A DNA stretch of 64,000 bases from Promethearchaeota archaeon (GCA_019058445.1 JAHPZA010000006.1:736001-800000), one strand, 5' to 3'. Shown: positions 13,342 to 17,726, numbered from the stretch's first letter. The notes: a model not told the origin generated them from the letters alone. Numbers and translations are program-made.

Positions 13342-14649
13342 ATGATGGATGATGAGGAATACAAGCATCTGATAAGACGTTGTATCCGCTGCTCTATATG
13401 TAAATGGATTCCACAGCTTCAAATTAAAAGTAAAAAATATGCGACTATCTGTCCCGCTATAGATATGTATAACTTCCATCCCTATAGTGGTGGTGGTAAA
13501 ATAATCCTTGCGCTTGCTTTAGAAATGGAAAAAATTAAACCTTCTGAGGAACTACGCGATATTGTTTATAAATGCACGGAATGTGGAGGCTGTGATGTCT
13601 CATGTAAATTTTTGAATAATTTGGAGCCCTTAGAAATTATAATAAAATTAAGGGAGAAATTAGTTGATTTAGGCTATGGCCCAATGCCTAAGCAACAACA
13701 ATACATTGATTCTGTTAAAAAAAACAATAATCCATATAATGAACCCCATGAAAATAGATTGAACTGGTTGCCAGAGGATATAAATATTGATCCTAATGCT
13801 CAAGTTTTATATTTTGTAGGATGCACTTCCTCCTATAGACGGAAAGAAATGGCAATTGCCGCCTGTAGAGTATTAAATGCTGCAGGAGTTCCATTTAATA
13901 TCTTAGATAATGAGGAATATTGCTGTGGAAGCCCTGTTTTTCGGACTGGTGATATTAACACCTTTAAAGATTTTATGAATAAAAACGTAGATGCAATTGA
14001 AGCTAAAAATATTAAAAAAGTAGTTTTCAGTTGTGCAGGCTGCTACGATACATTTAAAGTTCATTATCCGCTTTATCGTAATTATAATTTTGAAGTTAAG
14101 CATAGTGTTGAATTTTTTAACGAACTAATTGAAAATGGAAAATTATTATTGACGAAAAAAGTACCCTTAACTGTTACCTATCACGATCCTTGTCATTTAG
14201 GGAGAAATGCTGAACCCTACAAGGAATGGAAAGGTAAAGTTGTGAATTTAATGCCTTTGATATCTATTCACGTACCTCCTAAACCTAAACGATGTGGAAC
14301 TGATGGGGTATATGAATCTCCCAGAGAGCTTCTGAAAAAGATTCCCGAATTGAAATTCATTGAGATGGAACGGATTAAAGAATATTCATACTGTTGTGGA
14401 GCGGGGGCTGGTGTAAAATCAGCATTTCCCGAATTTGCTCTCCATACAGCAAAAAATAGGATACAGGAAGCTGAAGATACTGGAGCACAAGTTATTACGT
14501 CTTCTTGTCCCTTCTGTTCGACTAATCTTCAAGATGCAATTCATGAAAGCGATTCTCTATTAAAATATTATGACATAAACGAATTATTAATGATGGCAAT
14601 AGGGATCACTGATGAGAAATTAAAAGAATTTTTGGGGGAAGTTGCTTAA
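13342..14649 (+). CDS. Fe-S oxidoreductase, HdrD/GlcF-like (ferredoxin motifs + two CCG domains); intron-less copy
   Basis: CIRCSIC, CTECGGC, YCCGSP, YHDPCHLGR, YCCGAG and SCPFC motifs. Confidence 0.92.
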   Translation: MMDDEEYKHLIRRCIRCSICKWIPQLQIKSKKYATICPAIDMYNFHPYSGGGKIILALALEMEKIKPSEELRDIVYKCTECGGCDVSCKFLNNLEPLEIIIKLREKLVDLGYGPMPKQQQYIDSVKKNNNPYNEPHENRLNWLPEDINIDPNAQVLYFVGCTSSYRRKEMAIAACRVLNAAGVPFNILDNEEYCCGSPVFRTGDINTFKDFMNKNVDAIEAKNIKKVVFSCAGCYDTFKVHYPLYRNYNFEVKHSVEFFNELIENGKLLLTKKVPLTVTYHDPCHLGRNAEPYKEWKGKVVNLMPLISIHVPPKPKRCGTDGVYESPRELLKKIPELKFIEMERIKEYSYCCGAGAGVKSAFPEFALHTAKNRIQEAEDTGAQVITSSCPFCSTNLQDAIHESDSLLKYYDINELLMMAIGITDEKLKEFLGEVA

Positions 14650-16221: not shown

Positions 16222-16387
16222 AGGAATGAAGTTGACTAATAAGTATATATTGTGTACGTATGCAATAATAAGCTTTTTAACATTTAAGTTATTCCCAGAT
16301 AAGACTCAGATTTTTAAATTTATAAATTAATACTTATATAATCTCTATAATCAGAATTAAATAACTTTAAAATCAAGATGTAAGTCA

Positions 16388-17726
16388 ATGATTGATGAAA
16401 AAGAATATCAGAAAATGATTAAGCGGTGTCTGCGCTGCTCGATAAATGAATAGAAATTGATTCTTTCATTCGGAATGCAAGTGGATACCGCAAGTTCAGA
16501 TTAAGAGCCAAAAGTACGCGACTGCCTGCCCGGCAATGGATATGTATAATTTCCACCCGTATAGTGGTGGGGGTAAAATAATCTTGGCTTTATTACTTGA
16601 AATGGGCAGAATCAATCCTTCAGATGAGTTGCGGGATATCGTTTATAAATGTACTGAATGCGGGGCATGTGCTATTTCCTGTAAATTTTTAAACACTTTA
16701 GAACCTTTAGAAATAATTATGAAACTACGGGAGAAATTGGTTGATGCAGGATGTGGTCCAATGCCTAAGCAACAAGAATACATTGATTCAGTCAAAAATA
16801 AGAATAATCCTTATAATGAACCTCATGAAAAGCGATTAGATTGGTTACCAGAAGGGATTAAACTCGATCCAAATGCGAAAGTCTTGTATTATGTTGGCTG
16901 TACCTCATCATATAGACGGGAAGAGATGGCAATCGCTTCAGTCCGCATAATGAATGAGGCCCAAGTTCCCTTTACTATTTTAGGTGATGATGAATTTTGC
17001 TGTGGTAGTCCTGTTTTAAGAACAGGTGATACCAAAACATTTCAAGAATTTCTTAATAAAAACCTTGATATGATTGAGTCGAAAGGAATTGAAACCGTTG
17101 TATTTAGCTGTGCGGGGTGTTATGATACCTTTAAAGTCGATTATCCCCTATATCGAAAATATAATTTCCGTGTACTTCATGTCGTTGAGTTTTTTGATGA
17201 GCTACTTGAATCTGGACAATTAAAGCTGATAAATGAAGTGCCTTTAACAGTAACATATCACGATCCCTGTCATTTAGGGAGAAATGCTGAACCTTATGAA
17301 GAATGGGAAGGGGATGTGGTCGATTTAATGCCATTAGTTTCTATAAATATGCCGCCAAAACCCAAAAAAACAGGTGCTAAGGGTATCTATGACGCTCCAA
17401 GAGAGATTCTAAAAAAGATTCCGGGACTAAAACTTATTGAAATGGAACGAATAAGAGAATATTCTTACTGTTGTGGTGCTGGAGCAGGGGTAAAATCAGC
17501 ATTTCCCGAATTTGCACTCAATACAGCTAAAACTAGAGTACAAGAAGCAGAAGATACTGGAGCTAAGATATTGACATCAGCATGTCCATTTTGTTCTACA
17601 AATCTTCAAGACGCAATAAAAGATAGAGGCTCTAAGTTAAAATTCTATGATATAAATGAGCTATTATTAATGGCTTTAGGTTTAGAAACGAAAAGCTTAA
17701 AAAAAAAAATGGCGGAGGTTGCCTAA
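16388..17726 (+). CDS. HdrD/GlcF-like CCG Fe-S oxidoreductase, copy 2; split gene join(16388..16444,16476..17726), 435 aa
   Basis: Exon 1 MIDEKEYQKMIKRCLRCSI plus exon 2 CKWIPQVQIKSQKYATACPAMDMYNF... is colinear with, and the same length as, the 13342..14649 product; the ORF track start at 16536 misses the N-terminus. Confidence 0.88.
16445..16475 (+). other. Candidate archaeal bulge-helix-bulge (BHB) mRNA intron, 31 nt
   Basis: Helix UCGA(16439-42)/UCGG(16470-73), bulges UAA(16443-45) and AAU(16474-76), internal hairpin, exon-exon stem 16423-38/16477-91; canonical cuts restore the frame; in-frame TAG at 16451. Confidence 0.85.

Follow-up and report, generated by a model that had tools for sequence, protein, structure and literature searches.

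The closest described counterpart of the element reported here is the BHB intron of the cbf5 pre-mRNA of Crenarchaeota, which is cut between the second and third residues of the bulge (Watanabe 2002; Yokobori 2009, PMC2738675). According to a 2020 report, cbf5 is the only further BHB intron known besides an intron located in the 5' UTR of Haloferax HVO_1309, a case indicating that an mRNA can be a substrate of EndA (PMC7714728). In tRNA introns, the canonical hBHBh' motif combines two opposite 3-nt bulges with a 4-bp helix H and the flanking helices h and h' (Marck and Grosjean 2003, cited in bioRxiv 10.64898/2026.10.13.758758). In the literature that we searched, nothing was found on mRNA introns in Asgard archaea, and the only BHB intron described within a coding sequence was that of cbf5. 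A short frame-changing mRNA intron can also be excised independently of the spliceosome, as in HAC1/XBP1, where Ire1 acts together with a tRNA ligase or RtcB and where the exons, once cut, are believed to stay together through pairing with each other.

A 31-nt insert in an Fe-S subunit gene and its predicted fold

The window, by which we mean the whole stretch of DNA that was analyzed, covers 64,000 nt (G000:C6:736001-800000) of an archaeal genome of 4.6 Mb with ~32% GC, whose close relatives are titled Promethearchaeota (Asgard). Between 11787 and 19295, it contains a tandem duplicated module, each unit being made of a gene for a CCG-domain/4Fe-4S subunit and then of a gene for a FAD-binding oxidase. 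The second Fe-S gene, which begins with the ATG at 16389, is interrupted after codon 19 by 31 nt (16445-16475) that lie between TCG ATA and TGC AAG, right before the third Cys of a CxxCxxCxxxP motif; this insert causes a frameshift and introduces an in-frame TAG, and the ORF proposed there by gene callers is only 396 aa long, starting from the ATG at 16536. Rfam and tRNA scans of the window gave no match, and no homing-endonuclease gene adjoining the insert was found in the list of ORFs between 12000 and 18500. Translational bypass or frameshifting over these 31 nt was considered as a separate candidate and rejected, as there are no matching take-off and landing codons (AUA precedes the gap and GAA precedes UGC).

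A preliminary description of this DNA had proposed that exon sequences on the two sides of the insert pair over 11 bp, with 3 G-U pairs, and thereby extend a BHB stem. Inspection of the sequence and RNAfold predictions both bore this out: 16423-16433 (GCGGTGTCTGC) and 16481-16491 (GTGGATACCGC) can form 11 antiparallel pairs, three of which are G-U (16428-16486, 16431-16483 and 16432-16482), and folding of 16415-16500 placed this 11-bp stem outside a canonical hBHBh' motif (Table 1), with an MFE of -28.4 kcal/mol (z -3.3) and none of 200 shuffled sequences being as stable. The BHB criterion for flanking helices is met, with a 3-bp h helix plus the 11-bp outer stem on one side and a 9-bp h' helix on the other. 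When the rule that cuts fall between the second and third bulge residues (the 2|3 rule) is applied here, ...RCLRCSICKWIPQ... is restored, collinear with the tandem paralog and with 80 intron-less orthologs. Among the 67 stems with 11 bp or more (G-U allowed, loop of 20-60) that the + strand of the window contains, the one joining 16423-16433 to 16481-16491 is the most stable (-16.3 kcal/mol vs -12.9 kcal/mol for the next one). We also scanned the whole genome for BHB motifs able to rejoin open frames; the candidates (22,379 raw, 954 after filtering) had a flat length distribution and were mostly false joins of neighbouring genes.

Table 1. Coordinates of the predicted intron, of the paired elements around it and of the two Fe-S subunit genes in the window
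Feature	Position	Strand	Basis or remark
Exon 1	16389..16444	+	Start codon to 5' splice site; MIDEKEYQKMIKRCLRCSI; first two Cys of the CxxCxxCxxxP 4Fe-4S motif
Outer exon-exon stem, 5' strand	16423..16433	+	G of AAG, CGG TGT CTG, C of CGC; CGG and CTG rare
Unpaired GC of second Arg codon (internal loop)	16434..16435	+	RNAfold; used as internal control
h helix, 5' strand UGC (Cys codon)	16436..16438	+	Pairs with GCA 16477-79
Central 4-bp helix H, exon strand UCGA (from TCG ATA)	16439..16442	+	RNAfold
5' bulge UAA, 3 nt	16443..16445	+	Predicted cut 16444|16445
31-nt BHB intron (predicted)	16445..16475	+	Excision restores S-I-C-K-W exactly as in the paralog
Intron hairpin h'	16446..16469	+	5 + 4 bp, one bulged U, 5-nt loop
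Helix H, intron strand UCGG	16470..16473	+	RNAfold
3' bulge AAU, 3 nt	16474..16476	+	Predicted cut 16475|16476
h helix, 3' strand GCA	16477..16479	+	RNAfold; then bulged A at 16480
Outer exon-exon stem, 3' strand	16481..16491	+	G of AAG, TGG ATA CCG, C of CAA
Exon 2, CCG-domain Fe-S subunit gene	16476..17726	+	To stop codon; PF02754; Fer4_8 only partial without exon 1
Intron-less tandem paralog	13342..14649	+	435 aa, CCG + Fer4_8; intact; ~3 kb upstream

The same description had called the codons of this region GC-rich for the genome. The codons that it quoted are the right ones, and 10 of the 14 codons end in G or C vs a genome GC3 of 0.243 (P = 2.7e-4); in this genome, CGG and CGC account for 4.7% and 5.3% of Arg codons, CTG for 3.6% of Leu codons, TCG for 6.6% of Ser codons and CCG for 9.6% of Pro codons. 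Synonymous resampling of the same peptide according to genome codon usage gave a mean of 6.5 pairs out of 11, with a probability of 1.4e-4 for obtaining 11/11. The first paralog of the host genome (13342-14649) has no intron, and the codons and the junction (13398|13399) given for it in the preliminary description are correct; around this junction, it has moved to common AT-rich codons. The weaker pairing that had been attributed to it was recovered when folding energies were compared: the equivalent region of the paralog folds at -10.0 kcal/mol (z -0.9) vs -28.4 kcal/mol (z -3.3) for the intron-bearing gene, while only 4 of 11 positions pair between 13377-13387 and 13404-13414, the duplex reaching -2.8 kcal/mol.

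We also looked at how the outer stem affects the predicted fold of the BHB core. Within 201 nt of sequence, the native core was predicted to form with a probability of 0.27; when only the outer stem was recoded with synonymous codons, this probability fell ~40-fold, to a median of 0.0066, the native value being reached in 4% of the recodings, and it was 0.0015 with the paralog's codons.

Insert, codons and pairing across orthologs

Orthologs were collected through whole-genome searches (135 family members and more distant relatives), through a protein search with contig look-ups and from one metagenome match, giving a set of 100 distinct genes, of which 20 are intron-bearing and 80 are intron-less. 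A search for related loci in genome contigs gave seven loci, six of them identical to genes already obtained from the genome searches, and, among the matches listed for the metagenome pattern TGCTCGATA-N(24-48)-TGYAARTGG (at least 120 loci), one was a true ortholog (L192) and nearly all others were chance matches. An insert was detected at exactly the same codon in 20 of the 100 genes, spread over at least five genera of one family, and no intron was found in the other families and classes that were searched. Public gene calls for the intron-bearing orthologs are N-terminally truncated (394-396 aa) and lack PF13183, because callers begin at the first ATG past the intron, and databases therefore under-report the first Fe-S motif of these proteins.

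One may ask whether the insert is an intron at all, or whether it inactivates a paralog that is decaying or forms a translational bypass gap, the stem having arisen by chance: an intact intron-less paralog lies 3 kb upstream, so that the gene could be dispensable, and a stop codon comes soon after the break together with a hairpin, as in known bypass elements such as that of T4 gene 60. This explanation appears hardly credible when confronted with an insert that occupies the same codon in 20 distinct genes from at least five genera, with an exact BHB geometry and with the fact that G002, G018, G019, G021 and G072 show one match each at E <= 1e-150 with the query used, this match being the intron-bearing copy. 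Moreover, the reading frame and coding capacity of exon 1, including all its Cys, are conserved in 20/20 intron-bearing orthologs, a conservation that favours a removed intron over an inactivating insertion. The preference for a functional intron over a random inactivating insertion, already expressed in the preliminary description, is thus supported, on the basis of sequence comparisons and without an observation of splicing.

The inserts can be grouped into about six types (A, 31 nt; A', 29 nt; B, 31 nt; C, 31 nt; D, 34 nt; E, 29 nt). No alignment is possible between the interiors of types A, B, C, D and E, yet each has a hairpin next to the bulge, the h' hairpin of types B to E being kept by quite different sequences. 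Helix H reads UCGA/UCGR in types A, A' and E and CUCG/CGRG, shifted by one base, in types B, C and D, and the 2|3 rule gives the same in-frame protein from both helix registers. With two registers, a single consensus helix H for all intron types was impossible; formal pair counting covered the exon stem and h only. Types A, A' and E form a canonical BHB; in types B, C and D, the 5' bulge, H and h' are retained but the h helix is weak on its 3' side. Helix H contains a U-U mismatch in L070 of G128 (CUCG/CGUG) and a G-G mismatch in L258 (UCGG/GCGA), and these two introns may be decaying, unless the endonuclease tolerates a mismatch in H. Given the weak h of types B, C and D and the H mismatches of G128 and L258, not every copy need splice efficiently. 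In G003 (G003:C194; L030 and L057), both Fe-S paralogs have an intron, of 31 nt and 29 nt.

Equally stable stems in intron-less orthologs would have refuted the idea that selection maintains the structure for the intron, and such stems were not found. At the 11 stem positions, intron-bearing genes have a mean of 9.6 pairs (18/20 have at least 9) vs 6.3 pairs in intron-less genes (none above 9), a value that equals the codon-usage null, and register-free duplexes between exon 1 and exon 2 have an energy of -17.5 kcal/mol in intron-bearing genes (n=20) vs -7.0 kcal/mol in intron-less genes (n=80; best -14.3 kcal/mol). The extent of 11 bp that had been claimed holds in the gene of the window, but only the inner 9 bp are conserved across orthologs; as the two terminal pairs are held in only 55-60% of the intron-bearing genes, we take the conserved element to be 9 bp long. 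Four intron-bearing genes tolerate a mid-stem mismatch (U-U or U-C), and G021 (type D) has an intron with only 6/11 pairs and a duplex of -5.3 kcal/mol (-10.7 kcal/mol in its relative L255). Since G021, as well as L255, pairs weakly despite the presence of an intron, the long stem is not indispensable.

Codon choices differ accordingly between the two groups of genes: the Arg codon is CGG in 16/20 intron-bearing genes (and AGG in two more) vs 5/80 intron-less genes, the Pro codon is CCG in 16/20 vs 13/80, the Leu codon is CTA or CTG in 16/20 vs 8/80, the Ser codon is TCG in 20/20 vs 14/80 and the Cys codon is TGC in 20/20 vs 40/80. Synonymous entropy was 0.15 bits in intron-bearing genes vs 1.27 bits in intron-less genes for the codons of the BHB core, 0.93 vs 1.63 bits for those of the outer stem and 0.93 vs 1.06 bits for flanking codons. 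For the unpaired Arg codon between the stem and h, it was 2.09 vs 2.12 bits, intron-bearing genes using CGC (7), AGA (6), CGA (3), CGT (3) and CGG (1); that this unpaired codon varies freely argues against a mere lack of time for change. The earlier inference that selection maintains the RNA structure therefore gains support from the finding that the synonymous variation of paired codons is suppressed in intron-bearing genes only.

Covariation across the orthologs that carry the insert, a check suggested in the preliminary description, pointed in the same direction. In the alignment of the 20 sequences, 90% of the cells are paired vs 23-50% when the partner is slid by 1-3 columns, and compensatory double changes at two pairs are found in four cells, which 0/500 shuffles reach. 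C-G was replaced by A-U three times (columns 6/75), through a change from CGG/CCG to AGG/CCT in G132 (type B) and in L257 (type E) and to ACA/CCT in G021 (type D), and U-A was replaced by C-G once, through a change from TGT/ATA to TGC/GTG in G021. The other result that would have spoken against the inference, a lack of compensatory pairing among orthologs with the insert, was thus not obtained either. Pairing and double changes give moderate support to a conserved helix, as the sequences are related and as the events are few, which is because these sites are also coding.

A gene tree from which the junction region was left out needs 7-8 changes of intron state. In seven tree-independent pairs made of one gene with and one gene without the intron, six differed in the predicted way, none in the opposite way and one was tied (sign test p = 0.031), so that the expectation of a stem constraint that is specific to intron-bearing genes was met. 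The explanation that we favour, and that we regard as probable in the absence of RNA evidence, is that the 31-nt insert is a tRNA-type (BHB) intron in the mRNA of a CCG/4Fe-4S oxidoreductase subunit and that the stem is an outward extension of h, whose synonymous codons (CGG, TGT, CTR; TGG, ATA, CCG) are under purifying selection while the intron is present. Because relatives keep the stem only when they carry the intron, it looks selected to aid splicing. Whether the codons adapted to the intron or whether the intron persisted only in such a codon context cannot be told.

The stem might also have been selected for another role, such as slowing or blocking ribosomes on unspliced RNA, stabilizing the mRNA or acting as a regulatory hairpin, with only an indirect link to the intron. 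It lies 34 nt past the start codon and persists in the spliced mRNA as a -22.5 kcal/mol hairpin, so that it must affect translation. Furthermore, an AT-rich spacer precedes all 10 intron-bearing genes for which the upstream sequence was read (here 16222-16388, 167 nt; also L035, L039, L043 and L057), in place of an overlap with the preceding gene, which hints that these genes are expressed in another way; of the intron-less orthologs that were read, about half share an overlap with the end of the FAD-oxidase gene upstream, as though translation were coupled. Still, we find such a role quite improbable, considering that the stem is coaxial with the BHB, whose h helix it lengthens, that it is gone when the intron is absent in 6/7 contrasts and that recoding it collapses the predicted BHB folding. 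If the stem serves splicing, as we favour, the -22.5 kcal/mol hairpin that is left in the spliced mRNA and the rare codons are plausibly costly, and such a cost would account for the decay of the stem after intron loss.

Variation of the gene 5' end

Several sister genes (L060/L062, L070/L071, L083/L088 and L057/window 13342-13420) are near-identical downstream of the stem and sharply different in exon 1 and upstream of it. L060 and L062, for example, show 25% differences in their first 17-20 codons, then 0-2% over the rest of the gene, and the upstream DNA of sister genes is unrelated or only 85% identical. When the type B cassette is compared between clades, 30-34/36 nt of exon 1 and 28-29/31 nt of the intron are identical (~83-94%) while exon 2 is ~74% identical; upstream identity over 169 nt is 64-81% (108/133 to 118/169 nt), and the last ~100 nt upstream of exon 1 are highly conserved in appearance, as judged by eye from alignments. 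These comparisons of sequences suggest that the 5' end of the gene (upstream DNA, exon 1 and intron) may have been exchanged between lineages by recombination, with a breakpoint at the intron; chimeric MAG contigs as a source of the 5' differences are not excluded for short contigs.

In the type B genes L035, L060 and L070, there is no ATG, GTG or TTG in the frame of exon 1 between the upstream TAA and the ATG of M-I-K-R-C, and conserved E-D-E-Y codons precede this ATG in type B genes (~30 nt upstream of the stem). Exon 1 of type B is either only 10 codons long or translated from an unusual start codon.

Because the 5' cassettes share ancestry and seem to recombine, the contrasts between intron-bearing and intron-less genes are not fully independent and their p-values are optimistic. 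For the same reason, part of the association between stem and intron could be due to hitchhiking: all intron-bearing genes would have received, by descent or by recombination, a single ancestral 5' cassette whose good pairing was accidental and which ran from the upstream DNA through exon 1 and the intron to the first codons of exon 2, and the stem would then mark descent and not function. The differences between sister genes, which are almost confined to the first 17-20 codons (as between L060 and L062), their unrelated or much more diverged upstream DNA and the persistence of type B exon 1 and intron across clades beside a more variable exon 2 are all compatible with this scenario. It nevertheless seems unlikely to us as a full explanation, since these same cassettes show five synonymous codons at the unpaired Arg position and varying Lys and Gln codons at the ends of the stem, whereas the paired positions remain occupied by codons that this genome seldom uses. 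In addition, pair-preserving double changes do occur, intron-less genes sit exactly at the codon-usage null and the interiors of intron types A, B, C, D and E are unalignable, from which we infer that the cassettes are old.

A broader scenario, conceivable if rather doubtful, is that the evolving unit is the recombining 5' cassette itself (AT-rich upstream region, exon 1 and BHB intron), passing from one lineage or paralog to another with the intron as its downstream breakpoint, and turning a coupled operon gene into an independently expressed and splicing-dependent one. The half of the stem located in exon 2 would then be a resident sequence that the incoming exon 1 must match, complementarity deciding which exchanges survive.

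Proposed splicing and relation to known systems

Returning to a BHB intron whose outer stem aids splicing, we propose that, in this AU-rich transcript, the stem would clamp a weak BHB core into the form that is recognised by EndA. EndA would then cut between the second and third residues of each bulge (16444|16445 and 16475|16476), as inferred from the 2|3 rule. After cleavage, the stem, predicted to be a duplex of about -22 kcal/mol, would hold the short 5' exon to the 3' exon, such a holder being needed because an mRNA has no tRNA body, and RtcB may finally join the two exons, by which CxxCxxCxxxP would be restored. The genome encodes an EndA of 202 aa (PF01974, PF02778 and TIGR00324 at 89 bits for a cut-off of 59.6; one copy found) and an RtcB (PF01139, E = 2.6e-172); no second EndA paralog (beta subunit) was found in the genome with the EndA protein as query.

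These results provide comparative evidence for a functional intron, for which selection extends to the coding sequence itself and retains rare codons for the sake of an RNA structure. They also lead to a testable rule, according to which an mRNA BHB intron needs an exon-exon clamp as it has no tRNA body, and to a signature, namely complementary exon flanks that are built from rare codons and that vanish upon intron loss, which could separate real mRNA introns from broken genes in MAGs.

Like the cbf5 intron, the intron predicted here is a short BHB intron within a coding sequence, with a lineage-specific presence or absence and a variable interior beside a conserved adjoining exon, a conservation that was attributed to the keeping of the motif in the case of cbf5 (PMC2738675). 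Unlike the cbf5 intron, it is found in a different gene (CCG/4Fe-4S oxidoreductase subunit) and in a different phylum (Promethearchaeota, Asgard), its exon pairing runs 11 bp beyond h on rare synonymous codons and its presence or absence tracks the inferred recombination of the gene 5' end; furthermore, the splicing of cbf5 was experimentally shown, whereas it is only predicted here. Archaeal pre-rRNA processing stems and HVO_1309 similarly place a BHB within a long helix made by distant flanking sequences, with EndA cutting and RtcB-type ligation (PMC7714728). Their helices are however non-coding, whereas both strands of the stem described here are coding, so that the helix must be paid for in synonymous (and rare) codons.

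With tRNA introns, the predicted element shares a 4-bp helix H, the helices h and h' on either side of it and a pair of opposite 3-nt bulges; it differs in that the mature body holds tRNA halves after cleavage, whereas, by inference, only the exon-exon stem can do so in this mRNA. HAC1/XBP1 splicing, unlike the case described here, is a eukaryotic system in which the endonuclease Ire1 recognises two stem-loops instead of a BHB; our comparison implies no homology. Thus, the intron itself belongs to an already known class, and what is new is that exon codons are held on rare synonymous choices that build a long clamp and that track the presence of the intron.
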